Shown here: in pieces, positions 19,710 through 46,157 of the stretch
Position numbering within the stretch: position 1 is the first letter of the stretch
How the letters are laid out: every line of letters begins with the position of its first letter
Source of the DNA: a bacterium
Lineage (GTDB): Bacteria; Margulisbacteria; Marinamargulisbacteria; SXXA01; JAHFDB01
DNA: 64,000 nucleotides
NCBI GenBank assembly: GCA_023249195.1
Contig: JAHFDB010000003.1
Span: forward strand, 7,561-71,560
Direction: 5' to 3'
Notes under the pieces: model-generated
What the model was told of the DNA's origin: nothing
Seen by the model: the letters and a program-made list of their open reading frames with translations, nothing else
Database searches by the model: none
Program-made: the position numbers and the translations under genes

Positions 19710-21181
19710 CGACAGTCACCCAAATCAAAAAATTCTGGAGAACCAACACCCTTCCGCTCTATTTTGTGAGCCCGTCTGCTTTCAATTTACTCGGACTCAA
19801 CACATGGGTCAAAAATGCCTTTTTTATCTGCTATATCAATTCTTTCGATGGTCGGCATCGGCATGTTCGCATTCCCACCCATCAAGACCACCCTGTTTTT
19901 GAGCATTTAGAAGACATTAACCACTATTTGCTTTCCCATAAAACAACGTCCGATTGGCTGATTCAAGACAGGCTTCACCTTGATAAAAAAGCGCCTAAAA
20001 GCAAGGTGTTTTTTCTGTTTTTTGACCGAAATATAGAAGCCCTCTGCAAAGCATTGCGACTCGACATTTGCTTGCCTTCGTTTAAACAGGTCAAACACTT
20101 TGACAGTAAAATTTATACCACACAACTGGGCAATGCGGCAGGCGTACACAGTGTGCCCAATGCACTCGCAAAAATTGACAGTTACGATACCCTGTGTCAG
20201 ATTGCAAAAAAACACAAACTAGGCAAAAAGTGGGTGCTTCAAACACCTTACGGAGATTCTGGAAAAACGACCTTTTTTATCTCAAATAAAAAAGACTATG
20301 ATATCTATGCGGATCAGATTGAATCTGAACCTTTGATAAAAGTCATGAAACGCATTCGTTGTGTAAGTGCCGCCATTGAAGGGTGCACTACCTCTTGTGG
20401 CACTTTTGTAGGCCCTCTCATGCGCGAACTTATTGGCATTCCTAGCCTTACCCCTTATCAAGGGGGATGGTGTGGCAATGACATCTCGCCGGATGGCTTT
20501 TCTTCCGATATTCACACACAAGCCAAGGAACTTACCGTCAAACTTGGGCATGCCCTTTACCAAGAAGGATATCGCGGCTATTTTGAAGTCGATTATTTGC
20601 TGGATTGTGACACAGATACCATGTACCTAGGTGAGCTTAATCCAAGGTTTAGCGGGATCAGCGCACTCACCAACTTTGCATTACGCTCGCTTTTGCCCTT
20701 GTTTTTATTTCACTTGTTAGAATTCTTTTGCGTGCCTTTTTCTATCAACCCAGAAATTTACAATCAAAAAGTGCTGTCTCGGCTTTCAGTAATGACCTCG
20801 GGACAACTCATTTTCAAATACACCCCTTATGACCTTAAAATGGTTATGAAAGCCCCTGTTTCTGGGGTTTATATTCTCAGTGACGAGGGTGAACTGATCC
20901 TAAAAAAACAAGGGGTCAATCGACTTCTTGCCTCAGAGCCTCATGAGATTTTTTTATTTCGGATCTTGGCCGAACATGACTATCTTTATCATGGCGCCGA
21001 TATGGCCATTGTCTTTTTCAATATTCCTTTACTCGATGACACCCAAACCCTCACCCCAACTGCTCAGCGTTGGATTCAGGCAGTTCAAAACACCTTTCAG
21101 CTTCGTCATTTAACCGCTGAGGAACAAAATTTAGTGGACCGCTATCGCAACCCTGGTGTTCTTCTGAAAGGAACCCCCTAA
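19703..21181 (+). CDS. ATP-grasp family carboxylate-amine ligase
   Basis: YFEVDYLLDCDTDTMYLGELNPRFSG is an ATP-grasp C-terminal motif. The gene overlaps the decarboxylase stop by 7 bp, which suggests translational coupling. Confidence 0.55.
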   Translation: MLTTVTQIKKFWRTNTLPLYFVSPSAFNLLGLNTWVKNAFFICYINSFDGRHRHVRIPTHQDHPVFEHLEDINHYLLSHKTTSDWLIQDRLHLDKKAPKSKVFFLFFDRNIEALCKALRLDICLPSFKQVKHFDSKIYTTQLGNAAGVHSVPNALAKIDSYDTLCQIAKKHKLGKKWVLQTPYGDSGKTTFFISNKKDYDIYADQIESEPLIKVMKRIRCVSAAIEGCTTSCGTFVGPLMRELIGIPSLTPYQGGWCGNDISPDGFSSDIHTQAKELTVKLGHALYQEGYRGYFEVDYLLDCDTDTMYLGELNPRFSGISALTNFALRSLLPLFLFHLLEFFCVPFSINPEIYNQKVLSRLSVMTSGQLIFKYTPYDLKMVMKAPVSGVYILSDEGELILKKQGVNRLLASEPHEIFLFRILAEHDYLYHGADMAIVFFNIPLLDDTQTLTPTAQRWIQAVQNTFQLRHLTAEEQNLVDRYRNPGVLLKGTP

Positions 21182-21182
21182 C

Positions 21183-22160
21183 ATGCCTCTCCTTCAAAAA
21201 CGCATTCAGTTTATTGACGAAGACATTCCGGGTGAAAAATGGGTTTCTTTTTTCAAGCAACACCACATGGAATATCGTACGTGGTTCTTAAAAGAAGGAG
21301 AGCTCAATCGCCCTTCTTTTCTGCAATGCAAAGAGGCTCTGGCACACTTTATGCCCCACTTGGTTCCCATGTGGGAACACTTGGTCGAATTAGCCGGGGG
21401 GGGTGATCTTGAAGCCCGGCTTTTGAGTTTATATTGCCCGACGCCCTATGCCTCTGGGTGTTCTCAAGCCGTTTGGACCCGATATAACCCTATTTTAGTT
21501 CGCAATTATGATTACGACCCTCATTTATGCGAAGGGCGCATTCTCAAAAGCAACTGGCATGGGACCCGCGTTATTGCCTCTACAGACTGTTTGTGGGGTG
21601 TTCTAGACGGCATGAATGAGCATGGACTTATTGTATCTCTCTCTTTTGGAGGCACCACGGATATGGGCGAAGGATTTGGAATTCCTCTTATTCTTCGGTA
21701 TATCTTAGAATTCTGTCAAACCACAGACCAAGCTACCCAGATTTTATGCCAAATTCCTACTCATATGGCCTATAATATCACTCTCCTCGATGCCCATTAT
21801 CAGGTTACCACCGTCGAAGTGTCTCCCTCAGGAAAACCCCAGGTCAGCCACCGTCCCTTAGCGGTCAATCATCAAGGCGATTTTGCCCTAACCAACTATG
21901 CCATGTTTTCTAAATCTTATGAGCGTAAGCAGGCCATTTTAGACACGTTATTTGACCCCTATATCACCTTAGAATCGTTCATCAATGCCTTCGGATATGC
22001 CCCCCTCTGGAGCTCGGACTATGAGTCGGCCTTTGGGACTATCTATACCGCTGTATACAACCCCACGCTTCGGGCTATGGAATATCGATGGCCCTACCAT
22101 GTCAGGGCCTATCAGTCTTTTGAAGCCTTTGAAGAAAAAGACCTTTGGGTTACATTGTAA
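21183..22160 (+). CDS. Ntn-hydrolase of the peptidase C45 / acyl-CoA:6-APA acyltransferase family
   Basis: ASGCSQAVW is a candidate autoprocessing Gly-Cys nucleophile site, and DGMNEHGL is C45-like. The gene starts 2 bp after the ATP-grasp gene ends. Confidence 0.45.
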   Translation: MPLLQKRIQFIDEDIPGEKWVSFFKQHHMEYRTWFLKEGELNRPSFLQCKEALAHFMPHLVPMWEHLVELAGGGDLEARLLSLYCPTPYASGCSQAVWTRYNPILVRNYDYDPHLCEGRILKSNWHGTRVIASTDCLWGVLDGMNEHGLIVSLSFGGTTDMGEGFGIPLILRYILEFCQTTDQATQILCQIPTHMAYNITLLDAHYQVTTVEVSPSGKPQVSHRPLAVNHQGDFALTNYAMFSKSYERKQAILDTLFDPYITLESFINAFGYAPLWSSDYESAFGTIYTAVYNPTLRAMEYRWPYHVRAYQSFEAFEEKDLWVTL

Positions 22161-22196
22161 GAGTGTGTAAAATAGAAACAAAAAAGGATTTTTCCG

Positions 22197-23324
22197 ATGC
22201 CCCTTATACAAACAACCGTTCCCTTACTCGACTTAACCGCCCAATACGAACCCATCAAAGACGATGTCCTCGCTGTTATAAAAGAGGTTTTTGACTCTAA
22301 AGTCTTTATTTTAGGGCCTAAAGTTACACAGTTTGAAGCCCAGGCCGCTGCCTATTGTCATGTCAACCATGCTATTGGAGTCTCTTCAGGAACCGATGCC
22401 ATTTTAATGGCCCTCATGGCTATGGGTATTGGACAAGGCGATGAAGTTATTACAGCACCCTTCACTTTTTTTGCAACTGCCGGATGTATTTCTCGCGTAG
22501 GCGCCACCCCTGTCTTTGTAGATATTGATCCTCACACCTTTAATATTGATCCTCACTTAATCGAAGCCTCTATTACGCCTCGCACCAAGGCCATTATGCC
22601 TGTCCATCTTTTTGGTCACATGGCCGATATGGACGCTGTGATGGCCATCGCAAAAAAACATGGGCTTTATGTCATTGAAGATGCCTCACAAGCGATTGGA
22701 TCGCACTATACCAACTCTAAAGGTGAGGTTAAATGGGCAGGTTCTGTCGGTGATGTCGGGTGTTTTTCGTTCTTCCCCTCTAAAAACCTCGGGGGTATTG
22801 GGGATGGCGGCATGATTACGACCCAGAATTCTCATTTGGCAGACACCCTTATAAAACTCAGGAATCACGGGGCACAAGAGCGTTATTTCCATGAAATGGT
22901 CGGCGGAAATTTTAGACTCGATGCCATTCAAGCTGCCGTGTTAAGTGTCAAGCTGCCCACGTTAGAGGAGCAACATCGGCTTCGACAAAAAAATGGGGCT
23001 TACTACAACGAGCATCTCCACTCACTTGTCACGATTCCCTTTGTTAAACCCGGATTTCGCATGATTTACAATCAATATACCCTTCGCACCCCAAAGAGGG
23101 ATGCCCTTCATGCATGGCTGGATCAACGTCAAATCGGTAACGCTATCTACTATCCCCTTCCACTGCATCTGCAAAAATGTTTTGCCCATTTAGGCTATGA
23201 GGCTGGCGACTTTCCTGAATCAGAAAAAGCCGCTTTGGAAGTGCTTTCTATTCCCATTTATTCAGAATTAAATACAGAACAAAAACAGGCGGTTGTTGAG
23301 GCCATAAAAGCGTTTTTTAACTAA
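22197..23324 (+). CDS. DegT/DnrJ/EryC1/StrS-family PLP aminotransferase (ArnB-like)
   Basis: Family-typical segments include the N-terminal region, LMALMAMGIGQGDEVI, PVHLFGHMADMD and the GG..G.G.GGMITT region. Confidence 0.75.
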   Translation: MPLIQTTVPLLDLTAQYEPIKDDVLAVIKEVFDSKVFILGPKVTQFEAQAAAYCHVNHAIGVSSGTDAILMALMAMGIGQGDEVITAPFTFFATAGCISRVGATPVFVDIDPHTFNIDPHLIEASITPRTKAIMPVHLFGHMADMDAVMAIAKKHGLYVIEDASQAIGSHYTNSKGEVKWAGSVGDVGCFSFFPSKNLGGIGDGGMITTQNSHLADTLIKLRNHGAQERYFHEMVGGNFRLDAIQAAVLSVKLPTLEEQHRLRQKNGAYYNEHLHSLVTIPFVKPGFRMIYNQYTLRTPKRDALHAWLDQRQIGNAIYYPLPLHLQKCFAHLGYEAGDFPESEKAALEVLSIPIYSELNTEQKQAVVEAIKAFFN

Positions 23325-24443: not shown

Positions 24444-24518
24444 CGCGGGGTGGAGCAGAGGTAGCTTGTCGGGCTCATAACCCGAAGGTCAGAGGTTCGA
24501 TTCCTCTCCCCGCTACCA
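24444..24518 (+). tRNA. tRNA-Met (CAT), initiator type, CCA encoded
   Basis: The acceptor begins CGCGGGG with a 1:72 mismatch, the anticodon stem has three consecutive G-C pairs (TCGGG/CCCGA), and the loop is CTCATAA. The T-arm is GGTTCGATTCC and the 3' end is GCTACCA. Confidence 0.85.
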
Positions 24519-24532
24519 AATTTATAGTTTAA

Positions 24533-24566
24533 AAAAAGCCTGCAGGAATGTGGGCTTTTTTGTTTT
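24533..24566. terminator. Putative Rho-independent terminator hairpin downstream of tRNA-fMet
   Basis: aaaaagcc / tgcaggaatgtg loop / ggcttttt is followed by tgttttt. The flanking A and T runs make it symmetric, so it may act in both directions. Confidence 0.45.
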
Positions 24567-24597
24567 TAGCTGTCTTTAAACTATAGTCTTAGACTGT

Positions 24598-24667
24598 AAT
24601 GGGCCAGTGACAGGTTTAAAACCACAGACGTCGGGTAGCCATTTTTACCCACTTAAGCTATCCTTTT
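24598..24667. repeat. Copy B of the approximately 70-bp direct repeat, ending 10 bp upstream of the transposase-like ORF
   Basis: taatgggccagtgacaggtttaaaaccacagacgtcgggtagccatttttacccacttaagctatccttt aligns with copy A. It contains an internal inverted repeat (gggta/taccc) and a cttaag palindrome. Confidence 0.8.
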
Positions 24668-24676
24668 TATACCTCT

Positions 24677-25597
24677 ATGAAAAAGAACGAACTCATCCGT
24701 TTTGACTGGGCCATTAAAAATATCCTTCGCAACAAGGCCAATTTTCCTGTCTTAGAAGGCTTTCTGTCTGAGCTTTTACACACCGATGTTAAAATCAACT
24801 CTTTGCTGGAAAGTGAATCCAACCAAAGGTTTGAAGAAGATAAAGGCAATCGGGTAGATATCTTGGCCGAACTCACCGGCAATAAAAAAGTCATCATCGA
24901 AGTCCAATGTTTTAGCGAATGGGAGTTTATAACCCGAATAGTTTCTGGGGTAGCCAAGGTCGTCATTGATCATCTGCACTCTGAAGACCCTTATGGAAAG
25001 ATTCAGCGGGTGATCTCGGTACATATTGTCTATTTTGATCTTGGGGAAGGTCAGGATTATATCTATCACGGAACCACCCAATTTAAAGGCATTCACAAGA
25101 ACGATATCTTGCAGCTTTCTCCCAAGGAAAAAGAAAAGTATCCCGATCATATTGATACCATTGCCTCGATTTTTCCAGAATATTTTATCCTAAAACTCGA
25201 TCAATTTGATTTGAAGATCAAAGACACTTTGGATGAATGGATGTATACCCTCAAGCAATTGGAAGTCAGACCTGAATTTACGGCAAAGGGCATACAAGAG
25301 GCCGGTCAAAAACTTGAACCTTTTAGGCTTTCAGAAGACGAGCGTCTAAGCTATGAGTGCCACATTAAAAACAACCGTATTTCAAACAGTGTCTTGGAAA
25401 CCTACTTTTCTGACGGGCGTTTTGAGGGTAAGGCAGAAGGGTTTGCAAAAGGGTTTGCAAAAGAGTTTAAAAAGTGGAAGTCGGAAGCCCAATCTCACTG
25501 GGTAAAAGCCAAGCATCAAGCCCGTACTCCGATTGAAGAACTCTCACGCATTACGGGTTTAACCATCGACCAGATTCAGGCTATTTTAGGTTCTTAA
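24677..25597 (+). mobile_element. PD-(D/E)XK nuclease-family putative transposase (Rpn/YhgA-like, TIGR01784-like)
   Basis: The D...EVQ nuclease core (VDILAELTGNKKVIIEVQ), the C-terminal EGKAEGFAKGFAKEF repeat and the terminal ITGLTIDQIQAIL helix are typical of this family. The gene lies next to a tRNA, with repeat copy B immediately upstream. Confidence 0.65.
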
Positions 25598-25668: not shown

Positions 25669-26346
25669 GTGTATCTTTATTCTTTGATGCCCCCTCAAGC
25701 CCTTGTATTATTTTCTGGCGGACAAGACAGTACCACCTGTTTAGCCCAGGCTTTGGCTGATTATCCCGGTCAGGTTGAAGCTGTTGGATTTAACTATGGC
25801 CAGCTGCATCATATTGAGCTTGATCAGGCTGCTTTTCTTGCTCAAAAAGCAGGGGTTCCTTTTCACGTGGTGGACTTGCGTTTTTTAAGTGCTATTACCT
25901 CGAATGCATTGATGGATGCCTCGATTAAAATAGAGTCTTTACCTGGGCAATTGCCTTCGACATTTGTCGAGGGTCGAAATGTGTTTTTTTTGAGTACAGC
26001 GGCCGTTATTGCCAAGCAAAAGGGTATTCGTTTTTTGTATACGGGTGTATGCGAGACCGATTATTCAGGATACCCGGATTGTCGGGAAAATTTTATTCGT
26101 TCAATCGAGCATACATTAAGCTTGGCGATGGATTATCCTTTTACAGTTGTGACCCCTTTAATGCGGCTGACAAAGGCTGAAACGGTGGTCTTCATGCAAA
26201 AACTAGGAAAATTGGACTGGTATGCACATACGCATACCTGTTACAAAGGAATGCGTCCGGCATGTGGCCAGTGTCCCGCATGTGTGTTGCGTCTAAAAGG
26301 GTTCCGTGAGGCCGGAATTGCTGACCCACTTGCCTATATGGGATGA
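25669..26346 (+). CDS. queC: 7-cyano-7-deazaguanine synthase
   Basis: ALVLFSGGQDSTTCL (PP-loop) and the zinc cysteines CGQCPACVLR are present. Confidence 0.85.
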   Translation: MYLYSLMPPQALVLFSGGQDSTTCLAQALADYPGQVEAVGFNYGQLHHIELDQAAFLAQKAGVPFHVVDLRFLSAITSNALMDASIKIESLPGQLPSTFVEGRNVFFLSTAAVIAKQKGIRFLYTGVCETDYSGYPDCRENFIRSIEHTLSLAMDYPFTVVTPLMRLTKAETVVFMQKLGKLDWYAHTHTCYKGMRPACGQCPACVLRLKGFREAGIADPLAYMG

Positions 26347-30719: not shown

Positions 30720-31339
30720 TGCAACTTGTTTTGGCCACCAACAACCCACACAAAATCGAAGAGCTCAAAACCCTTTTAAAAGGTTCCCCTTTTGAGGTTG
30801 TTGGGTATTCAGAGATTTTTTCCGATCCCATTCATCCTGTTGAAGACGGAACCACCTTTCAAGAAAATGCTCTGAAGAAGGCATCTGCCTTCCCTGTTCA
30901 CCCCAGACGTGTCTATTTGGCCGATGACTCAGGCTTAGAGGTTGCTGCCCTACATGGACAGCCCGGAATATTTTCTGCTCGCTATGGGGGCGAAAATGCC
31001 AGTGGGGAAGAAAGATGTCGATTGTTATTGGCCGAGATGCGCCATCAGCCCGACAGACGGGCCCGGTTTGTCTGTGTGGTTGCGATTTTATTCCCAGATG
31101 GACAGAAGGAAACGGTTGAGGGCATTGTCAACGGAACCCTCACATCGACTCTGTCTGGGACTAAAGGGTTTGGATATGACCCCATTTTTATTCCAGAAGG
31201 CTACTCACAGACGTTTGCTCAATTAGGCTCTGAGATTAAAAACAAGTTAAGTCATCGCGCCCGGGCTCTGCGCTTAGCAAAAACGATTATTGAAAACAAA
31301 AAAACATCTCCGATTGCCCAAGCGTATCAAAACATATAG
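30716..31339 (+). CDS. rdgB: Non-canonical purine NTP pyrophosphatase (Ham1/RdgB)
   Basis: LVLATNNPHKIEE, FVCVVA and GFGYDPIF are present. Confidence 0.8.
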   Translation: MMQLVLATNNPHKIEELKTLLKGSPFEVVGYSEIFSDPIHPVEDGTTFQENALKKASAFPVHPRRVYLADDSGLEVAALHGQPGIFSARYGGENASGEERCRLLLAEMRHQPDRRARFVCVVAILFPDGQKETVEGIVNGTLTSTLSGTKGFGYDPIFIPEGYSQTFAQLGSEIKNKLSHRARALRLAKTIIENKKTSPIAQAYQNI

Positions 31340-32631
31340 CCCATCCCAAGTGCCCATCGATTGGTATCAGGGTTATCATTAAATTTTTGATAGTCCGCCT
31401 TAAAAACAACATCATATCGGGGTTTGAATGACATCCCTACCGTAAGGACATGATCGGCATTTTCCAAGTCGGAGGTGAACCCATTGGGAAGCCTTGCTTG
31501 GGTGTTATAGGTTTCGAAGCGGGCAAAGGGAGTCAAAGACATGTCGCCTTCTTGCCACAGGGTGTAAGCGCCTTGTACAAGCCACCCATAAAATTCGCTA
31601 GGAACATAGGGCCGGCTGGAGGTGGGATTTGCAAGATTGTAAGTTTTAAGGACAGCATCAATGGCATCGGTATCGCTGATCGTTCCATTGGCATAGAGGG
31701 CCTGAAAATCCCATCCGTTTTTTTGCCATCGGGTATGAATATCCCAAAGGGTAATGTGTCCGGTAATGCCTGAGAAATCAGGGTTTGTAGAATCGGCTTT
31801 AAAATCCGCATTGCCATGAAAAGCATTGCCCATAAACAGGGCACTTCCAAGGGTAAACCCAGATTCTTTATAGGCGAGTGCCCCATAGTAAGACAGGTCG
31901 CGGGCTTTGGCGAATTGAAGCTCTTGATGGCTTGCTTTTAATGGGGCCGAGGCATCGTCAAATTTTGCCAAGTCAAACCCGGTAGTAATGCCCACATTCC
32001 AGATAAATCCGGTCTCTGTTGTACCGGAAAGCTCTAGGCCGCCCTCGCGCCATGTACTGGGGATAATTCTGGTTTCAATTTCATTGCGTTCTACCCCATA
32101 AAAAGTAGGGGGCTCATGGGAGGGATTAATAAACCCAAAAGGGATCAAAAACAATCCTGTTTTTAGAGCCAGTCCAGACGAGATCTGATACGTCAAAAAA
32201 GCCTGTTCAATTTCACTTTCACCCTGATCGGACTGGCTAACGATGGCATGCTCCCATTCAAGTTCGCTATTAAAGCTGATTTGTTCATTAAATCGATGGC
32301 CTAAAAAAAGAACAAACCGCTTCAAATCAGCTTGCGTTCGATCGTCCTTTGTTAGGTAACGCGTATAGCTCATTTCACCATATCCGCCTATCGACGTATC
32401 TGTCGAAGCGGGGGCGGCTGTTCGGGTCAATTTCTGCAGCAAATCAGCTTGGACATTTAGCTGGGTTTTGAGTTCTTGAATGTGGCGCGCCCATTCGGCC
32501 TCATCCGCAGAAAGAGACATCCCCAACAGGATAAATGCCGTTGTGGTCGCAACAAGACGGGTAAATAGGTTCATCAAAAAAATCCTTTGTAAACTTAATA
32601 AAACTATATTGATACTAATACTCAGTCTCAA
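31327..32631 (-). CDS. Outer-membrane porin with an N-terminal coiled coil (possibly phosphate-selective porin O/P-like)
   Basis: The signal peptide MNLFTRLVATTTAFILLGMSLSA (the true start is probably the internal Met near 32574), a coiled-coil segment, an amphipathic beta-rich body and a C-terminal GMGYMF are present. Confidence 0.45.
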   Translation of the reverse strand: MRLSISINIVLLSLQRIFLMNLFTRLVATTTAFILLGMSLSADEAEWARHIQELKTQLNVQADLLQKLTRTAAPASTDTSIGGYGEMSYTRYLTKDDRTQADLKRFVLFLGHRFNEQISFNSELEWEHAIVSQSDQGESEIEQAFLTYQISSGLALKTGLFLIPFGFINPSHEPPTFYGVERNEIETRIIPSTWREGGLELSGTTETGFIWNVGITTGFDLAKFDDASAPLKASHQELQFAKARDLSYYGALAYKESGFTLGSALFMGNAFHGNADFKADSTNPDFSGITGHITLWDIHTRWQKNGWDFQALYANGTISDTDAIDAVLKTYNLANPTSSRPYVPSEFYGWLVQGAYTLWQEGDMSLTPFARFETYNTQARLPNGFTSDLENADHVLTVGMSFKPRYDVVFKADYQKFNDNPDTNRWALGMGYMF

Positions 32632-32666
32632 TACGAATTTAATTTACAGTCTTAGATAGTCGGCTG

Positions 32667-33092
32667 TCAAACCTTTTTTCTTCCCATCCAAATATGCCAC
32701 GCAAGCAGGGCTGGAAAACAAATACCGATGATACAGTGAGCCCAAACAGTGAGGCTTCTGAGGGTTTCCCCGCCAAAGTAATAAAGACCATAGCCACTTA
32801 GGGCAAGCAGCAAATAGGCGGCAGTTATGAGGCTGCCTGGAAGGCGATTTTGACGCTTTTTCCACCCGATTTGCAGATGACTTGGAATCAGCCATCCAAA
32901 AACAATCAGGCTTCCCATGGCGGCGCCGCCGTGAGTTTTGAGCAGCCAAACAGCCATTTCTGAAGCACCTGAATAACGGGATAAATCGACACATTGAATC
33001 AAGAGCCAAAATAGCCCCGAAAGAAAAAGGCCTACAAAGATCACATAAAAAAGTGATTTCAGTGGGGTATTTAAGCGTGTTTTGTTTTTCAT
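32667..33092 (-). CDS. Four-TM membrane protein with conserved His/Trp, possibly heme-binding (DUF4405-like) and a partner of the flavinylation module
   Basis: Four predicted TM helices are present. Conserved His residues lie in SHLQIGW, WAHCIIG and AWHIW. It is on the same strand as, and directly downstream of, apbE. Confidence 0.35.
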   Translation of the reverse strand: MKNKTRLNTPLKSLFYVIFVGLFLSGLFWLLIQCVDLSRYSGASEMAVWLLKTHGGAAMGSLIVFGWLIPSHLQIGWKKRQNRLPGSLITAAYLLLALSGYGLYYFGGETLRSLTVWAHCIIGICFPALLAWHIWMGRKKV

Positions 33093-33102
33093 TCAGTTAC
33101 TT

Positions 33103-33945
33103 TTATAGGCGCGTCATAAAGGCAATCGCGTTGAACTGTTTTAATATAGAATGAGACCCGTCTTGAAGTACAGTCACAATTTTTGTGAGGGCATCTGCAA
33201 CCATGCAGGTTTCGGACAAAACACTCACACTTAGGGTGTCTGAAACAGGTTTTCGACTGAGGCCATCCAAGTGGAGACACCCCGCTAACCCTTCCCTTTT
33301 TTGTGAGAGATTAGAGGTGGCCAAAGCCTTTTTTTTAGGGTCGTAAGGAAGGGGCCCTTGATGATACTGATGAGGGGCAAGTCGCACCCAAATGTCGGGG
33401 TCTTTATATCCAAAGTAACGAAGATCCCCACCTGCATTGACCAGGCCACTGTTTAACCCAAAGCCTTCTAACACTTCTATAGCCTGATCTACAGCAAACC
33501 CCTTCGCAATGCCTCCTAAATCAACCACTAGGGGCACGTGATAATGAACTCTCCCCCCCTCTAGTAATGTGATGTCTTGTCCGGTTCCTGTCCCTCGATG
33601 AGGAAGATGCTGTGGCAATTCCCCATAGTCCACCAGTTCAGACCCAATAGACACATCAAACACGCCTCCGGAAACTTTAAACAAGTTCTGCGAAAATTTT
33701 AAAACTGAGTATAAATTATGGCTGACATGAATAGGGGCTAGATGGCCATAAGCGTTTAGTAAAGAAAGTTCACTATCGGGGGCATGAAAGCTCATCTCTC
33801 TTTCCACCCTAGAAACAGCGTCAAAAGCAGCCTGAACAGCCTCACATGCCCGTGTCTCATCGGCATGAGACCCTTTGATTTCAACAAAAGTGCCCAAAAG
33901 GGGGCGACACCGAGAAACGTTAATGAGGTTTGAGTATGAGCTCAT
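33103..33945 (-). CDS. apbE: FAD:protein FMN transferase (ApbE/Ftp)
   Basis: ApbE-family motifs are present (LLGTFVEI, DLGGIAKGFAVD). The start was placed at the internal ATG at 33945 because the upstream ORF (the FMN_bind gene) stops at 33920. The 26-bp overlap suggests an operon. Confidence 0.7.
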   Translation of the reverse strand: MSSYSNLINVSRCRPLLGTFVEIKGSHADETRACEAVQAAFDAVSRVEREMSFHAPDSELSLLNAYGHLAPIHVSHNLYSVLKFSQNLFKVSGGVFDVSIGSELVDYGELPQHLPHRGTGTGQDITLLEGGRVHYHVPLVVDLGGIAKGFAVDQAIEVLEGFGLNSGLVNAGGDLRYFGYKDPDIWVRLAPHQYHQGPLPYDPKKKALATSNLSQKREGLAGCLHLDGLSRKPVSDTLSVSVLSETCMVADALTKIVTVLQDGSHSILKQFNAIAFMTRL

Positions 33946-34507
33946 AAAAAGAAAGCAATCGTTTGACACCTTGTGTGACATGACGACTCGACAGTGTGGC
34001 GCCACTGATGTTTTGAATATCTTGATTGAGCTTGAGTTTGGCCCCGTGTTTTTTGCCAAAAAACTGACTTTGCCATTTTTTTTGTCGAATCTCAGAACCA
34101 AAAGTTTCCTTGTATTCTAAAATTTCTATCTGTCGAATGCTGCCCTCTTTTTCCAAAGCTAACACCCATTGAATAGCCTCATGTTTACCCAAGACAGAAT
34201 CTAAAATAACCCAGCCTAAAAATGCAGATCCATGATACGCTGCCCATACTTTTTGCTCGTGAAAGCGTACAGGTATCCCTGAATCTTTTTCAATCAAAGC
34301 CATTTGGTCACGGGTAAGTTCAACAGGGGTAGCTATCCATTGGGTCGCGGTGGGAAAGCATGCCCTTTGAGCCTGCTCAAGGGTAAGATATTGAACAGAA
34401 AAACAAGCCGTCGCACTTGCAATGACAACAATAGGGGTTAGCCAATAAAGCGATTTGTCAAACATGGTAATGAAGGTAGTATAATAGCAGCGATACAGCA
34501 GGTCCAT
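33920..34507 (-). CDS. FMN-binding domain protein (NqrC/RnfG-type FMN_bind), the predicted flavinylation substrate
   Basis: An N-terminal TM/signal anchor is present. DIQNISGATLSSRHV contains the S-G-A-T flavinylation motif. Confidence 0.6.
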   Translation of the reverse strand: MDLLYRCYYTTFITMFDKSLYWLTPIVVIASATACFSVQYLTLEQAQRACFPTATQWIATPVELTRDQMALIEKDSGIPVRFHEQKVWAAYHGSAFLGWVILDSVLGKHEAIQWVLALEKEGSIRQIEILEYKETFGSEIRQKKWQSQFFGKKHGAKLKLNQDIQNISGATLSSRHVTQGVKRLLSFYELILKPH

Positions 34508-34557
34508 CCATCTTTACCTTTGGCAGTTGTATAGGTGAGTATTATCAGAATAAACAC

Positions 34558-35178
34558 ATGACTTTAAATATCTCGAAACAATCTGGCTATTTAGCCCGAT
34601 ATTATGACGGGCTTTGCCGCCAATTTTCTCGTTCGTATAAGACAGTGGGCTGGTATTCTTATAAAACCCAAGAGGCCAGATTTAATATTGCCTCCCAAAT
34701 AGCGGACTGGAACGGCCAGTCTATTCTCGACATTGGCTGTGGGCTGGGAGATCTGTGGGGCTATTTAAAAGAAAACGGCATTGCCGCACACTATTCAGGG
34801 ATAGATATTAGTCAAAAAATGATAGCGCTATCCCAAGCACACTTTCCAGAGGTATCGTTTAGAGTCCAAGACCTTTTTGATCGGCACTTTCAAGAAAAAT
34901 ATGACTATTGCTTTGCCTCGGGACCCTTTAATCACAGACTTAATGTATCCCAAAACATTTATATTCAAGAAGCCATCTCCCGAATGGTCGAGATCAGCAC
35001 AAAAGGGGTTGTGTTTAACGTGTTGTCTGACAAAACCCCTTTCAAAAAACGCCAAGACCATGAGTTTTTCTATTATAATGCCCAAGAATTAGCTGTATTT
35101 AGCCAAACTTTGGTCTCAAGAGTAGTGGTCAAAGAAAATTATTTACCCAATGATGTGACGCTTTTTTTATACAAGTAA
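34558..35178 (+). CDS. Class I SAM-dependent methyltransferase
   Basis: ILDIGCGLGDLW is a glycine-rich SAM motif. Confidence 0.6.
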   Translation: MTLNISKQSGYLARYYDGLCRQFSRSYKTVGWYSYKTQEARFNIASQIADWNGQSILDIGCGLGDLWGYLKENGIAAHYSGIDISQKMIALSQAHFPEVSFRVQDLFDRHFQEKYDYCFASGPFNHRLNVSQNIYIQEAISRMVEISTKGVVFNVLSDKTPFKKRQDHEFFYYNAQELAVFSQTLVSRVVVKENYLPNDVTLFLYK

Positions 35179-35193
35179 GGTATACTTGAAAAA

Positions 35194-35607
35194 ATGGCTA
35201 TTCCTGAAGGTAAAATCTTTACATTTGAACCGGAGTCCAGCATTCGATCAGACTTTCTAGAAGTTTTTCCCTATGAGGGGGAACCCCAATTTATTGTCTA
35301 TAAAACCCGTGAATTTTCTTGTGTATGTCCGTTTTCAGGGCTTCCTGATTATGGCGAACTTAGCATCGAACACATTCCCCATCAACACTGCGTAGAGCTT
35401 AAATCATTCAAATATTATCTCACCTCTTTTCGAAATGTAGGCATCTATCAAGAACCCGTGACCCATCGTATTTTTAAAGATATTTACGCATTATTGAACC
35501 CCCAATATTTGAAAGTGACCACTCTTTACAACACCCGCGGGGGAATCGATGCGACATGTTCGATTGAGAAGGGTGTACGTTGTCGGTCAGGGTCCTCGTC
35601 GGCATGA
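35194..35607 (+). CDS. queF: NADPH-dependent 7-cyano-7-deazaguanine reductase (type I)
   Basis: The catalytic Cys (FSCVCPFSGLPDY) and the QueF motif ELKSFKYYL are present. Confidence 0.75.
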   Translation: MAIPEGKIFTFEPESSIRSDFLEVFPYEGEPQFIVYKTREFSCVCPFSGLPDYGELSIEHIPHQHCVELKSFKYYLTSFRNVGIYQEPVTHRIFKDIYALLNPQYLKVTTLYNTRGGIDATCSIEKGVRCRSGSSSA

Positions 35608-36541: not shown

Positions 36542-37813
36542 GTGATAAGACTCGTTTATAAAACAATAAGTTTACATACGACGCCTCATTTATGGACCAG
36601 AGCACGCTCATTGGGAAGCCATGTTGTACTTTCTCCAGAATGTCTAGCCGGATTTAACCATCAGGGGTCATTAGACAATGTAGCACCTGAACAGGCGCAT
36701 GCAAAAGTGGCTGCACTCTTAGGTTCCGATGAGTTAAAAGCACGATTTAATCAACACGTTTTATCTTTAGTAGATTTAATAAGGATAGAGGACCCTTCGA
36801 AGAGATTTGAGAGGGGGGCTCACATCAGTCAAGGGGCACAGGGATGCGTGTGTCACTGCTGTTTTGACGCAAAGCCCTATGTGGTAAAAAGTGTCAATCA
36901 AGAAGGTGTTCACGCTTTAAAGAATGAAGCCGCATTTTTGATGCAGCTTTTAAAACAGTATCCGACTGAATACTGGTATCCCCACCCCCAAGCTTTTTTT
37001 GAAGACAGCGATGGCAACGGTTTTTTAGTGATGGATAATCTAGGGATGTGCTTATCGGCTGCAATAAAAACAAAAATACCCCTAGAATTGGGAGACATCT
37101 CAAGACAGCTTCTAGATATTTTGAAAAAAATACACGAATGTCACATTATTCACGGAGATATTAAGCCTGATAATTTATTTTTAGATACAGAAGGGGTGCT
37201 TAAAGTGGGAGATTTTGGACTGTCTCTGAATAAGAAATTTAGCCCAGGCTTTGCTTACTATGGCACTTTGCTGCAGAGAGATTCTGCAGATGACAAAGAG
37301 CCTGTTCCAGAATGGCTTGCTCAAGAGTTAGCCGATGCGGATATCCTGAGTCTTCCGGGTAGCGATAGTCCAAAGGGATCAGGTGGAAATAGGTTTCCCG
37401 TAGGCACTGCAAATTTTCTTTCTCCAACCTTTGTAGATGGAGCTGAAATGAAATTCACTAATCCTGGGGCGGATCGTTTTGGAGCAGGATGTGTTTTATA
37501 TGCGCTTCAGTATGGCAAAACAAAGCTCTTAGCTATCTATGGGATTAAAGCTCCAACAGAAGAAACCGCTTATCTTCTTGCAATGAAGAACGGGTTTGTC
37601 TCTGCCTATCAGAGCGTTTCCGAAGAAAAATACGGTTGTAAAGAATTTCCCAATTCGGTACAGGGACTGCTTCAAATTTGGGAAAAAGCCTCTTGTAAAG
37701 ACAAAACCCTTAGCCCTATGGACTTTTTTTCCCACGCGATGGTTCATCCAGACACACGTTTTTTGAGTGTTCCGGACTACACCACGCTTCTGACTGAACT
37801 TATTCTGGTTTAA
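36542..37813 (+). CDS. Eukaryotic-like (Hanks-type) serine/threonine protein kinase
   Basis: The catalytic loop [11 protein letters not shown], the DFG motif and kinase subdomains are present. Confidence 0.7.
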
Positions 37814-41832: not shown

Positions 41833-43323
41833 TTAAGCTAATCGCCGACTCTTTCCGAGGGGTTTGGGCCCTTGAATGACGGCACATGCATCAGGGGCTT
41901 CTTCCTTCAAGCAATCGAGAACCGTATATCCAGAGGGATTTGCTTTGGCTAAAACTTCTTCCATATCTTCATCACTAAGCGGCGTCAACAACCTAAGAAT
42001 GATATCCTCTGAGCATACTCTAATAACACAATGCGCAAAAGAGTCACCTTCTGGGTTATTAGTAAGCAGTAGTTTTTTTAACTGGGGAAGGGTTAGCACT
42101 CTTAAGATCTCCGGCAATTGATCACTATGCCGATTTGCTAATACAGCGCAAAGAATATGTCCAGAAATATCTGAGGGTTGACATAAAATGGCCAGTCTTT
42201 TATCAGAATAAAGCTTGGCTAATAGTCCGAAAAATGCTTCGACATTATGGAGAATTAATAGGTGTGCAAACGTGTGCGTTGTTTCAGTATTTCCTACATG
42301 ATTCAAAAAGGGTATCCAGTCGTCTTGAGAAAAATCGGCACAGAGGCGTTGAATCATTCCAACTTGACCCAAAGTTAATAACAGTGTCGCTATACTTTCC
42401 GTTCTTGGAGCCTCTGCTAAACTTAAAACAGCCCTTTTATCCTCTTTAATCAGACGCTCTACCTGGCGTTCAAATTCTACCACAGAAGTTCTAACAAGCA
42501 TTTCATAGTAACCAGGATTTGTTTCTCTCGGAATGTTCTTCATGTGTGAAAGAACCGTTTTCCGATCCTCTTCTCGCAAGCTCTGTAAAATTTCGCTCAA
42601 TACAGCAGGGTGTTTTTTGGCTAACAGACAAGCAACCCTGCCGTTATTTACATCTGTCAGACTAAGAATATTGACAACGTGAGCGGAATCAAAGGTTGCA
42701 TGAATATATTTAAGAAATTTTACTAAGCTATCTAGGCTATTTTCTCTGCCTTTTGCCCACTGATTCACCACAGTTTCTCCATTAGACTTCGTCAGCTTGA
42801 GAATAGCTAAGGCCTGAGCATATGGGATTTTACACATTAGCCTTCCAAGCAACTCTGAGAAGTGTTTTATCAATCTATCCGCAAGAGACCCTTTGCCAAT
42901 CCTGGTTTCCATGCTGAGCACTTCTGCTATTTGATGGGGTTCAAGCCGAGTGAGCATATCTTCAATAAGGGGGTTGCCATAATATGCCAAGTAATAAGAG
43001 ACGGGAAATCCATTAGAGCCCGTTATATTGAGAATTTTTACAAGGACAGAGGGATCCCTATCCTTGATTATGGCTACAAAGAATTTTTGCCAAAATCCTG
43101 TCAGTTGATGAGCCAGGGCATAGCCATTATTATTATATGGGCGACTCAGATGTTCGATGAGTTTCTCTGGTGAAAAAGCACACCATTCCTGAAGGATAGG
43201 GCTGCCGGTTAGAGTTGTACCATTGAATTCAGAATAATGGGCGGAAACTGTTTTTTTTATAAAAAATCCTCCTATTAAAACACTTAGAAACAGTGATATT
43301 TTGGAACAGTCCCACTGTATCAA
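41833..43323 (-). CDS. Ankyrin-like repeat protein with an N-terminal hydrophobic segment; effector-like
   Basis: Seven or more degenerate units of about 35 aa of the form G-x-[ST]-hh..h...L..hL (NGRVACLLAKKHPAVLSEIL, SGHILCAVLANRHSDQLPEIL, EGDSFAHCVIRVCSEDIILRLL). Confidence 0.5.
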   Translation of the reverse strand: MIQWDCSKISLFLSVLIGGFFIKKTVSAHYSEFNGTTLTGSPILQEWCAFSPEKLIEHLSRPYNNNGYALAHQLTGFWQKFFVAIIKDRDPSVLVKILNITGSNGFPVSYYLAYYGNPLIEDMLTRLEPHQIAEVLSMETRIGKGSLADRLIKHFSELLGRLMCKIPYAQALAILKLTKSNGETVVNQWAKGRENSLDSLVKFLKYIHATFDSAHVVNILSLTDVNNGRVACLLAKKHPAVLSEILQSLREEDRKTVLSHMKNIPRETNPGYYEMLVRTSVVEFERQVERLIKEDKRAVLSLAEAPRTESIATLLLTLGQVGMIQRLCADFSQDDWIPFLNHVGNTETTHTFAHLLILHNVEAFFGLLAKLYSDKRLAILCQPSDISGHILCAVLANRHSDQLPEILRVLTLPQLKKLLLTNNPEGDSFAHCVIRVCSEDIILRLLTPLSDEDMEEVLAKANPSGYTVLDCLKEEAPDACAVIQGPKPLGKSRRLA

Positions 43324-44284: not shown

Positions 44285-45196
44285 ATGGTCACAACACGTG
44301 GGTATGGGGATATGGGGTATCTTGCCCGACACCTTCCCTTCAAAGAAGACCCTTCTTTACTGCTTGAAGGGGTTCAGTCCGCCATTGTGGTGATCAAAAA
44401 CTATAAAAATACCTCTCAAAAAAATCTGGATGGACAAAAAAAAGTGGCCCGTTATGCAGCTGGGCTTGACTATCACACCGTCATTGGAGCAAAACTTCAA
44501 AAATTAGAAGCCTATATCCAAACCCAATTTCCAGAGGCTAAATCTTATTCTGGTGTCGACAGCCGTCCTCTTGCCGATCGATCGCTGGCTCTCAAAGCAG
44601 GCATCGGATTTCGAGGCAAAAACACCATGGTTATTCGCCCTAAAGTGGGCAGTTATTTTTTTATTGGAGTGATCCTGACCACCGTAAAATTCGAAGAAGA
44701 TCCACCCTTCATAGGCACTTGTGGTACGTGTCAACGCTGCATCGAGGCCTGTCCCACTCAAGCCCTTTCATTGGATGGAAAAATGGACATTCAAACATGT
44801 ATTAGCTATCAAACCATCGAAAAAAAAAGCCCTGCCTCAACCCATAGCGCATACGATAACCAAGAAACCATCAAAAGCCCTGCCTCAACCCATAGCACAT
44901 ACGATAACCAAGAAACCATCAAAAGCCCTGCCTCAACCCATAGCACGACAGGGCGAGAGGGGGAGGCTCCAGCTGGCTCTGCCAGTGGAGGGGGCGACGC
45001 AAGCCCCCAACTATATAGTTGGGCATTTGGTTGCGATATTTGCCAAGAGGTTTGCCCTTTTAATCATGTCAATACGCCCCTCACCAATTGGGCCGAATTT
45101 CTACCTGAATCAGGGGTGGGTTTTTCCCTACAAAATATCCAAGAAATTCCTCAAAATACAGCCTTGTATCGATCGAGGAAGCGGTTAATGTTATAA
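44285..45196 (+). CDS. queG: Epoxyqueuosine reductase; a canonical start codon is missing and the linker carries a tandem-repeat insertion
   Basis: CGTCQRCIEACP and the QueG hallmark GCDICQEVCPFN are present. Homology to the QueG N-terminus (HTLGFEACRIT; YGDMGYLARH versus E. coli HGEMDWMARH) runs upstream to 44183 in frame, with no ATG, GTG or TTG after the stop at 44180. Confidence 0.7.
   Translation: MVTTRGYGDMGYLARHLPFKEDPSLLLEGVQSAIVVIKNYKNTSQKNLDGQKKVARYAAGLDYHTVIGAKLQKLEAYIQTQFPEAKSYSGVDSRPLADRSLALKAGIGFRGKNTMVIRPKVGSYFFIGVILTTVKFEEDPPFIGTCGTCQRCIEACPTQALSLDGKMDIQTCISYQTIEKKSPASTHSAYDNQETIKSPASTHSTYDNQETIKSPASTHSTTGREGEAPAGSASGGGDASPQLYSWAFGCDICQEVCPFNHVNTPLTNWAEFLPESGVGFSLQNIQEIPQNTALYRSRKRLML
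44822..44946. repeat. Tandem 48-bp repeat, about 2.6 copies, in frame inside queG (encoding KSPASTHS(A/T)YDNQETI)
   Basis: aaaagccctgcctcaacccatagc(g/a)catacgataaccaagaaaccatc is repeated, with a single substitution between copies. Confidence 0.9.
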
Positions 45197-45206
45197 TCGA
45201 AAGACC

Positions 45207-46157
45207 ATGAGTATCATCTCTCTTTCTATTGTCGTTCCTGTCTATAACGAGGCGGGTTCAATTCCTGAATTTAGTGTGCGGATAACCCAAGTTTTAGAGG
45301 ATATGTCCACCCGGTTTAGCCTTCTTAAAGAGGCCCTCGAAGTGGTGTGTGTCAATGATGGATCGACCGATGAGAGTTTAAGTCTTTTACTTGCACAAAA
45401 CCAAGCAGACCCTCGTTTTAAAGTGGTTAATTTGTCCCGAAATTTTGGACACCAAGCAGCCCTGTCTGCAGGCATTGATGTGGCCAAGGGCGAGTTTGTT
45501 GTGGTCATTGATGCCGATTTGCAAGACCCTCCAGAAACGATTCCTACACTTTATGAAACCTCACTGAAAGGCTTCGATGTGGTGTATGCCGTGCGTGCTA
45601 AAAGGGAAGGGGAGTCTTGGTTTAAAAAAGTGACCGCACATCTCTTTTATCGCCTGCTCAGAAAACTGAGCCCTTTTCCTATTCCCACTAATACCGGAGA
45701 CTTTCGCTTGATGAGCCGGCGCGTTGTTAACGTCTTAAAACGCATGCCGGAGCGCCACAGATTTATTCGAGGAATGGTTAGCTTTATCGGATTCCCTCAG
45801 ATTGGGGTTCTCTACCATCGACAGCCACGATCTGCCGGAGAAACAAGCTATACCCTTGTTAAAATGTTGCGACTGGCTGCGGACGCGATTACATCCTTCT
45901 CAGCATTGCCCCTAAGAGTAACTTTATACCTAGGATTTGGGGTGGCAGGGTTAGGTTTTTTATATGCCTTTGATATTTTATATGAAAAATTATTTAAGCA
46001 CACTACCTTGCCTGGATGGTCGTCTTTGATGGTAGTCGTGCTTACTTTAGGGGGTGCACAACTGATTTTCTTGGGACTCATCGGAGAATATTTAGGTCGT
46101 GTTCATGACGAATCTAAGCAAAGACCACTCTATATCATCGAAAGCGAGACGCCTTGA
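45207..46157 (+). CDS. GT2 polyprenol-phosphate glycosyltransferase (ArnC/DPM1/GtrB-like)
   Basis: IVVPVYNE, DGSTD, DADLQD (DXD) and two C-terminal TM helices are present. Confidence 0.75.
   Translation: MSIISLSIVVPVYNEAGSIPEFSVRITQVLEDMSTRFSLLKEALEVVCVNDGSTDESLSLLLAQNQADPRFKVVNLSRNFGHQAALSAGIDVAKGEFVVVIDADLQDPPETIPTLYETSLKGFDVVYAVRAKREGESWFKKVTAHLFYRLLRKLSPFPIPTNTGDFRLMSRRVVNVLKRMPERHRFIRGMVSFIGFPQIGVLYHRQPRSAGETSYTLVKMLRLAADAITSFSALPLRVTLYLGFGVAGLGFLYAFDILYEKLFKHTTLPGWSSLMVVVLTLGGAQLIFLGLIGEYLGRVHDESKQRPLYIIESETP

Follow-up and report, generated by a model that had tools for sequence, protein, structure and literature searches.

A conserved minus-strand cassette encoding an FMN_bind protein, an atypical ApbE, a putative di-haem cytochrome b and a porin, with a possible role in iron assimilation

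A 64,000-nucleotide stretch of a Marinamargulisbacteria contig (GenBank assembly GCA_023249195.1, contig JAHFDB010000003.1, positions 7,561 to 71,560; referred to here as the window) carries on its minus strand, at 31327-34507, four genes encoding an FMN_bind protein, an ApbE-family protein, a 141-residue four-helix membrane protein and an outer-membrane porin. The locus raises the question of whether these products form an electron-transfer system of the cell envelope, through which membrane component the electrons would pass, and for what purpose. A first-pass annotation of this DNA had described an ApbE-associated flavinylation and electron-transfer module of overlapping genes beside a porin, and had left its function unknown. 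All four genes proved to be real, and they lie on the minus strand at or directly adjoining the positions given in that annotation, and are closely spaced. Our analysis suggests that the cassette is an electron relay across the inner membrane, composed of a di-haem cytochrome b, a flavinylated FMN_bind protein and an outer-membrane barrel, with iron assimilation as its likeliest role; we hold this reading with about even confidence. The function need not be called wholly unknown, because operator motifs and neighbouring genes point to iron.

The gene order is conserved well beyond the window. A genome scan yielded 39 related loci and a metagenome scan yielded 80, and 118 related loci entered the comparison. 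The carriers include Verrucomicrobiota, Burkholderiales (Pandoraea, Paraburkholderia and Janthinobacterium), Andreprevotia, Nevskia and many soil metagenomes; among those in culture are Pandoraea terrae, Paraburkholderia piptadeniae, Nevskia soli and Andreprevotia chitinilytica. The FMN_bind and ApbE genes precede the gene of the four-helix protein, the putative cytochrome b, in 73 of the 75 loci with enough flanking sequence. This conservation of the trio, together with the ApbE-linked cytochromes described in the literature (PMC8238504, PMC11334425), favours the earlier reading of an ApbE-associated system for electron transfer across the membrane. In 59 of 97 non-redundant loci, a 4-nucleotide (nt) overlap joins the end of the ApbE gene to the beginning of the cytochrome b gene. 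In the window, the overlap stated in the first-pass annotation holds for the FMN_bind and ApbE genes, which share 26 nt when ApbE is started at 33945, but not for the 141-residue gene, which starts 10 nt past the ApbE stop. Other neighbours that recur in the metagenome loci (RpsB, Tsf, RpoC, LigD and a PduO-type adenosyltransferase) were rejected as partners, being housekeeping genes of one lineage. In a Janthinobacterium metagenome-assembled genome, a quinohaemoprotein amine dehydrogenase alpha subunit is encoded about 0.7 kb downstream of the cassette (L022:5202-6842, plus strand); this placement may be fortuitous, or the enzyme may be a further redox partner in the periplasm.

In the proposed relay, the four-helix bundle would hold two b-type haems, one ligated by His54 and His119 on the periplasmic side of the inner membrane and the other by His72 and His133 on the cytoplasmic side. 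The cytochrome would connect the covalent flavin mononucleotide (FMN) of the Sec-exported FMN_bind protein with the quinone pool, or with a donor in the cytoplasm, and pass electrons between them, and the porin, or a DUF6662 barrel in other phyla, would let a small outside solute reach this periplasmic flavoprotein. Under iron limitation the cassette might reduce Fe(III) chelates in the periplasm, or relay electrons for uptake of the FTR1/cupredoxin type; the electrons might go into Fe(III) reduction itself, or the cassette might act as a relay or sink of electrons in a step of the FTR1/cupredoxin or peroxidase kind. Gene content, motifs, invariant residues, synteny and operator-like motifs are the observed part of this picture, while the binding of haem, the direction in which electrons flow, the connection to quinone, iron as the substrate and the identity of the enzyme that flavinylates FMN_bind are inferences. 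By analogy, the locus appears to work like the known ApbE-associated extracytosolic electron-transfer systems (Méheust et al., Huang et al.). It differs from them in a four-helix membrane component below Pfam thresholds, a fixed outer-membrane barrel, a leaderless and atypical ApbE, and a probable iron-responsive operator. Cytochromes c and thioredoxins carry electrons in the periplasm, and flavoproteins that depend on ApbE are coming to be seen as a third class of such carriers.

The 141-residue four-helix protein

The putative minimal di-haem cytochrome b is encoded at 32667..33092 (minus strand) and is predicted to reside in the inner membrane. The first-pass annotation had pointed to DUF4405 and PepSY_TM as families to be looked for in this protein. 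We found no meaningful match to it in Pfam or NCBIfam: neither DUF4405 nor PF01292 (cytochrome b561) appeared at E<=1, and PepSY_TM was absent, so that the protein is not a Pfam-level member of DUF4405. A word-indexed search recovered three relatives only. With an exhaustive profile search the number rose to 1,494 cluster representatives (50% identity) at E<=1e-3; of these, 856 also passed E<=1e-10.

The AlphaFold2 model of the protein (pLDDT 93.9) consists of four long helices, at residues 9-35, 41-78, 83-105 and 109-140. His54, His72, His119 and His133 (codons at 32933, 32879, 32738 and 32696) are invariant in an alignment of 68 relatives with 31-50% identity, in agreement with the earlier description of a histidine-rich four-transmembrane (four-TM) protein. 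The motif on the periplasmic side is SGYGLYYFGGETLR. Basic stretches are found at the N-terminus, in the loop at 78-86 (KKRQNR) and at the C-terminus (RKKV), and by the positive-inside rule these segments would place His54 and His119 toward the periplasm and His72 and His133 toward the cytoplasm, on helices 2 and 4. The histidines are 18 residues apart in helix 2 and 14 residues apart in helix 4, or roughly 5 and 4 turns of the helix, which should point both histidines of each pair in the same direction. We infer from the model that this arrangement is the pattern of bis-His di-haem four-helix cytochromes b.

The relatives provide a further indication. When the 68 sequences were scanned singly at E<=0.1, DUF4405 (PF14358) was matched by 38 and PF01292 by 35, which made these by far the commonest families, with weak matches. 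In ten sampled relatives, helices 3-4 always mapped to positions 85-162 of PF01292 and to positions 3-63 of DUF4405, and one of the ten exceeded the gathering score of PF01292 (31.9 vs 30.1). What remains of the proposed family assignment is thus a set of weak, near-threshold matches to PF01292 and PF14358 that come from the relatives alone. Judged from sequence, the protein probably represents a distinct, very compact family remotely related to the di-haem cytochrome b superfamily, and sequence and model together make a minimal two-haem cytochrome b likely.

Several results weigh against this assignment. The alignment of the family to an E. coli-type CybB by hhalign reached a probability of 0.8%, with a template alignment of low diversity. 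A Foldseek search of the model against the PDB returned generic helix bundles only, and the family profile matched no PDB sequence. The window protein itself has no significant match to any haem family. These negative results would also suit a protein that is not a cytochrome at all but a metal channel lined with His, or a factor for assembly or anchoring, with no electron transfer across the membrane; the iron context of the cassette fits such a role, and conserved histidines can bind metals. We consider this explanation quite improbable. The histidines form pairs at two depths of the membrane, on two helices, an arrangement known from bis-His di-haem bundles, and the helices of the family contain no conserved acidic residues. 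Moreover, the weak matches of the relatives are recurrent and colinear to two di-haem families rather than to transporters, and the protein is obligately linked to a redox flavoprotein.

As a putative cytochrome b, the protein can be compared with three groups of membrane cytochromes. Its predicted four-helix, bis-His di-haem architecture is shared with the cytochrome b561 family (PF01292), which includes CybB and the b subunits of hydrogenase and formate dehydrogenase; however, its histidine spacing and conserved motifs differ from those of this family, and the CybB and PDB comparisons given above also set the two apart. The second group is DUF4405. A six-TM DUF4405 protein has been shown to bind haem b, and it has been proposed that DUF4405 serves ApbE clusters as their membrane component (Huang et al. 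2024, mSystems, PMC11334425). As in these systems, the gene of a small His-rich membrane protein adjoins apbE, four histidines are proposed as haem b ligands (which has been shown for DUF4405), and electrons are proposed to be carried across the membrane to a flavinylated protein; the weak PF14358 matches of the relatives point the same way. However, the described DUF4405 proteins have six TM helices, are found by Pfam, and occur mainly with Flavodoxin_4 substrates and a flavin transporter, whereas the cassette combines four helices under the Pfam threshold with an FMN_bind substrate, a fixed barrel and a leaderless ApbE that lacks His257, a residue considered in the next section. The family would thus be a four-helix analogue of DUF4405 that a Pfam-based search misses.

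The third group comprises the MsrQ-like and PepSY-like flavinylated systems, for which a role as assimilatory iron reductases has been proposed (Méheust et al. 2021, eLife, PMC8238504). They resemble the cassette in combining a membrane cytochrome, an ApbE and an exported flavinylated protein, in having iron transporters or TonB receptors as neighbours, and in sending electrons from the membrane to a periplasmic flavin. They differ in their membrane families (PF01794 and PF03929/PF16357) and partly in their substrates (DUF2271). The cassette has neither a NAD-binding domain nor DUF4198, and its four-TM family stands outside the five classes of PMC8238504. Many ApbE clusters still have no identified membrane component, and the four-His family, with about 1,500 representatives at 50% identity, is a candidate for it.

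The ApbE-family protein and its exported partner

The FMN_bind gene (33920..34507, minus strand) is listed with 195 residues and matches PF04205 with 44.1 bits (cut-off 22). Comparison with loci L006 and L011 indicates that its true start is probably M15, at 34465. The S-G-A-T flavinylation motif noted in the first-pass annotation is present at residues 168-171 (bases 34006..33995). At the N-terminus, a hydrophobic segment finishing in ASATA/C (…IVVIASATA/C…) reads, by inspection and hydropathy only, as a Sec-type or lipoprotein-like leader. In every orthologue examined, an ISGATLS[CS]xH motif is accompanied by a signal peptide, and AxA-type cleavage sites are found in the orthologues.

We then considered whether this protein could be a canonical RnfG or NqrC. 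It shares with them the FMN_bind fold and an N-terminal membrane or signal segment, and in RnfG and NqrC the FMN sits on the Thr of the SGAT motif. Its nearest solved relative is RnfG (7zc6_G, E 1e-5). However, its NCBIfam scores are far under the equivalog cut-offs (TIGR01947, 39.9 vs 102; TIGR01938, 22 vs 144), and Pfam scans of the main open reading frames (ORFs) across the whole 64-kb window found no Nqr or Rnf subunit; none is encoded nearby in the related loci either. The FMN_bind protein is therefore not an RnfG or NqrC at the equivalog level, and the independence of the module from these complexes, as first proposed, is confirmed for the window.

The ApbE-family gene is listed as the ORF 34101..33103. 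Because every orthologue starts a few residues before a conserved RR[AC][RK]PLLGT, we place the start at the ATG at 33945, which gives a 280-residue protein (33103..33945, minus strand) without a leader; its first residue stands 13 residues before the conserved RPLLGT. Its membership of the ApbE family is clear from the match to PF02424 (124.1 bits, cut-off 25.6, profile positions 1-256 of 266), and the nearest solved structure is Vibrio cholerae ApbE (6nxi, E 1.3e-15). The recognizable motifs are DLGGIAKG (33522..33499), NAGGD (33438..33424), ALATS (33327..33313) and ADALTK (33198..33181).

Simply calling this protein "the FMN transferase", as the first-pass annotation did, overlooks what distinguishes its clade. 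We aligned 83 non-identical cassette ApbEs to V. cholerae ApbE, whose numbering is used here. His257 has been reported to be the general base and to belong to the small set of active-site residues that are conserved; Ser241 and Asp285 are conserved as well (PMC12052999). The clade keeps the motifs of the site for flavin adenine dinucleotide (FAD), as well as Ser241 (82/83) and Asp285 (81/83). At the column of His257, however, only 6 of the 83 proteins have His, with Pro in 34, Ala in 19 and Ser in 12; the window protein has Leu there and a His one residue later, and the ApbEs of L006 and L011 lack the segment that carries His257. A second substitution concerns the Mg2+-ligand Thr four residues after the Asp, which is Lys in 80 of the 83 proteins and reads ADALTK in the window. 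In Treponema pallidum Ftp, the corresponding T288 is a first-sphere Mg2+ ligand, and the T288A substitution abolishes FAD pyrophosphatase activity (PMC4436053). Finally, no hydrophobic leader was seen by hydropathy and inspection, without a dedicated predictor, in any of the 85 cassette ApbEs with complete N-termini (maximum KD12 1.63, against a median of 2.23 for the FMN_bind leaders).

The cassette ApbE is predicted to be cytoplasmic. With no leader, no general-base His and a Lys at the Mg2+-ligand site, it is doubtful that this protein flavinylates its partner outside the cytosol, and the protein misfits a simple scheme of periplasmic flavinylation, which weighs against the proposed relay in that form. 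This mismatch between a leaderless, atypical ApbE and a Sec-exported FMN_bind substrate is the most promising lead of the locus. Three possibilities present themselves: the precursor may be flavinylated before it is exported, ApbE may have a role other than that of a transferase on the cytoplasmic side of cytochrome b, or ApbE may be exported by an unconventional route.

The first two of these amount to an explanation in which ApbE is a cytoplasmic partner of cytochrome b rather than a periplasmic flavin transferase. It would either flavinylate the unfolded FMN_bind precursor before Sec export, or act as an FAD-binding electron-input subunit, much as Fre feeds MsrQ. In keeping with this explanation, the leader is always on the FMN_bind substrate and in 0 of 85 ApbE orthologues, the His257 and Mg2+-ligand substitutions prevail in the clade, and the 4-nt overlap couples the ApbE gene translationally to cytochrome b in 59 of the 97 loci. 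In L032, an uncultured gammaproteobacterial contig, a second ApbE is encoded 5.5 kb from the cassette (L032:240-1445, minus strand). This ApbE is a canonical lipoprotein with an LAAC lipobox; its YSHILDP segment contains the catalytic His, and its D-A-W-A-T segment the metal-ligand Thr. Because the two ApbEs coexist, that of the cassette is regarded as a distinct paralogue. On the other side, the cassette ApbE keeps the FAD-binding motifs, Ser241 and Asp285, as a working transferase would; ApbE-bound FAD is not known to have a redox role, and Sec is not known to export a flavinylated chain. The judgement that the signal peptide is missing also comes from hydropathy and inspection rather than from a dedicated predictor. 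We therefore regard a cytoplasmic ApbE as a tentative explanation, clearly less probable than its rejection. Cytoplasmic ApbEs are known and serve a cytoplasmic fumarate reductase (PMC12052999); unlike the cassette ApbE, they are not known to be paired with an exported substrate.

It is possible, though again we would not favour it, that these proteins constitute a branch of cytoplasmic ApbEs, altered at the metal ligand and devoid of His257, which work at the inner-membrane face and form with the barrel and cytochrome b a widespread, iron-responsive redox system of the envelope. Were the FMN_bind precursor to receive its FMN ahead of Sec export, no FAD would be needed in the periplasm. The leaderless ApbE bears on the place and mechanism of flavinylation, and of FAD supply, in Gram-negative bacteria. 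A recoding event that fuses FMN_bind to ApbE was also considered and rejected: the ApbE gene lies in frame +1 in 64, +2 in 9 and 0 in 3 of 76 loci, the gaps vary, and there is no consistent signal. In L028, L067 and L075, the two genes are in frame and parted by the FMN_bind stop alone, where readthrough would yield an exported fusion.

Outer-membrane barrels, iron and peroxide

The gene adjacent to the trio, at 31327..32574 on the minus strand and 92 nt downstream of the 141-residue gene, encodes an outer-membrane porin of 415 residues. The identification as a porin, made already in the first-pass annotation, is supported by a match to PF07396 (22.2 bits, cut-off 20.9) and by the fold. Besides a signal peptide and a coiled-coil helix at its N-terminus, the protein shows a barrel of the 16-strand type and ends in Phe, and its AlphaFold2 model (pLDDT 84.2) matches OmpF, OmpC, Omp-Pst and OprP in Foldseek with E about 1e-12 and probability 1.0. 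Between this porin and the module-linked one of L001, the identity is 42% (E 1e-93). The annotation had placed the porin merely beside the module. It is indeed adjacent, but more than a neighbour, since the cassette regularly has an outer-membrane barrel as its fourth component: of 65 loci, 61 have a barrel gene immediately upstream of FMN_bind, which belongs to the window-porin family in 25 and to DUF6662 in 36. The DUF6662 barrel has roughly 285 residues, a signal peptide, a C-terminal Phe and PF20367 scores of up to 118.9 bits, and BLASTP detected no homology between it and the porin. The occupation of the same slot by two unrelated barrels argues for a generic role such as solute access. 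A role of the porin as a flavinylation substrate, like DUF3570, was rejected, as its SGTT is not conserved in L001. We found no paper in the literature that describes DUF6662 or this cassette.

The window departs from the usual arrangement in that its porin lies downstream of the trio instead of upstream. The porin family is also large, with at least 4,397 matches, and the nearest relatives of the window porin, from Dyella (60-65% identity), are stand-alone genes, which tells against the proposed system and means that the porin is not exclusive to the cassette. Together with the 92-nt gap and the promoter-like sites of its own, these observations would be expected if the window porin were a chance neighbour outside the system. 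The promoter region of the porin bears on this directly. A Fur-box-like operator, GATACTAATACTCAGTCTC (32611..32629, no strand assigned), matches the Fur consensus at 14 of 19 positions and shares bases with the -35 element and spacer of a promoter-like site at 32631..32603, upstream of the porin gene; it is the sole exact match to the lineage pattern in the 64-kb window. Its 14-mer ATACTCAGTCTCAA is identical in the FMN_bind upstream regions of L006 and L011 and was found nowhere else in the 50 loci compared. These two cassettes are the nearest to that of the window, although their cytochrome b is only 42% identical to that of the window. The 9-mer core TAATACTCA occurs twice in 64 kb, once inside the porin-promoter box and once as a half-site upstream of FMN_bind (34536..34544, minus strand), where it overlaps the -10-like GATAAT of a promoter-like site (34568..34541). 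From these motifs, a Fur-like operator appears to be common to the porin and the trio. With this sharing, and with the porin family or an analogous barrel directly preceding FMN_bind in the loci counted above, a chance neighbourhood seems improbable to us. Another match to the Fur-like pattern, CATACTCAGTTTCAGTCTA, has three mismatches and lies within a 943-residue ORF at 10519-10537 (plus strand).

The proposed relay with its barrel is accompanied by similar operators in other bacteria. Fur boxes were scored as matches out of 19 to GATAATGATAATCATTATC, with a threshold of at least 14. Upstream of the first cassette gene such boxes were found in 6 of 15 proteobacterial loci, compared with 3 of 62 other intergenic regions of the same loci; examples are GAAAATGAGAATGATTCGC and GATAATAAAAATAATTCTC. 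These are consensus matches from loci that are phylogenetically non-independent and have approximate start codons, which weakens the link to iron; in the lineage of the window, Fur is a candidate regulator.

Neighbouring genes also point to iron. In Paraburkholderia piptadeniae (L036), genes for a cupredoxin (104 bits) and an FTR1 iron permease (120 bits) come after the cassette on its own strand, and a TonB-dependent receptor is encoded close by; P. ultramafica (L033) has homologues of these three genes. In the Verrucomicrobiia locus L007/L055, FTR1 comes directly after cytochrome b (43.9 bits vs 25.3). In Nevskia (L024), a cupredoxin and FTR1 are encoded about 6 kb away, and in Pandoraea a cupredoxin-like ORF lies just upstream of the cassette. 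In Bifidobacterium breve, apbE and bfeUO (FTR1-family) are needed under iron chelation and adjoin the sif cluster, which encodes the FMN-binding SifE (PMC5449479), and ApbE and FMN-binding proteins have been linked with iron reduction and uptake (PMC8238504). However, adjacency to FTR1 is confined to about 3 lineages among many, and the cassette of the window has no iron transporter. Taken together, the Fur-like operators, the FTR1, cupredoxin and TonB-receptor neighbours and the published links between ApbE and iron make iron assimilation the best-supported role, albeit indirectly. If this link holds, the cassette would represent a new, compact route of iron-related redox chemistry in soil Verrucomicrobiota and Proteobacteria.

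FtrABCD and EfeUOB systems, which take up iron with FTR1, include a membrane electron-transfer partner (FtrD, EfeB). The Paraburkholderia cassettes resemble them in being followed by a cupredoxin (FtrB-like) and an FTR1 (FtrC-like). Unlike these systems, the cassettes have no P19 or polyferredoxin, and most of them, including that of the window, have no nearby FTR1 gene.

A different role is suggested by the gene for a di-haem cytochrome c peroxidase (CCP_MauG), which starts 8-10 proteobacterial loci and points to peroxide. In these Burkholderiales and Nevskia loci it lies directly upstream of the porin, tightly spaced and on the same strand. The cytochrome b and FMN_bind protein might accordingly deliver quinol electrons to this periplasmic peroxidase, making the cassette a module for oxidative stress or H2O2 respiration; the peroxidase of the window's host would then be encoded elsewhere. 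We rate this explanation as rather unlikely. Pfam scans of the main ORFs found no such peroxidase in the window, and none is present in any Verrucomicrobia-type locus or in most metagenome loci. Several of the peroxidase-containing operons are themselves preceded by Fur-like boxes, which are also compatible with the peroxidase serving as an electron sink in iron uptake. Such a role has been proposed for EfeB of EfeUOB.

Flanking genes and other features of the window

The cassette is flanked by housekeeping genes, namely those for RecJ, RelA/SpoT, RdgB, a methyltransferase, QueF, DapB, a protein kinase and LeuRS. An Rfam search of the window gave two tRNAs only, with no FMN or other riboswitch. 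The queuosine genes QueC, QueF (type II preQ1 synthase) and QueG are scattered, at 25669-26346, 35194-35607 and 44285-45196, and QueF adjoins the divergent neighbour of the cassette. A gene at 36542-37813 (plus strand) encodes a 423-residue protein with a eukaryotic-type Ser/Thr protein kinase domain (PF00069, 64 bits).

Farther from the cassette, a 689-residue ORF at 13297-15366 (plus strand) joins a urea transporter domain (PF03253, 189 bits) to a C-terminal Peptidase_M23, an unusual fusion. A same-strand run at 17037-23324 (plus strand) encodes an 890-residue Orn/Lys/Arg decarboxylase-like protein, a 492-residue protein without a Pfam match, a PF03417 acyl-CoA:6-APA acyltransferase-like protein and a DegT/DnrJ aminotransferase, and may be a small biosynthetic cluster. 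A tRNA gene at 24444-24515 is followed by a PD-(D/E)XK family transposase-like ORF at 24677-25597, so this segment (24444-25597) may be an insertion site of a mobile element. Large ORFs without a Pfam match at E<=1e-5 are found at 9157-11988 (minus strand, 943 residues), 12001-13185 (minus, 394), 41833-43323 (minus, 496), 46154-47650 (plus, 498) and, within the run described above, 19703-21181 (plus, 492). A PIF1-like helicase (PF05970), which is uncommon in bacteria, is encoded at 49661-50962 (minus strand).

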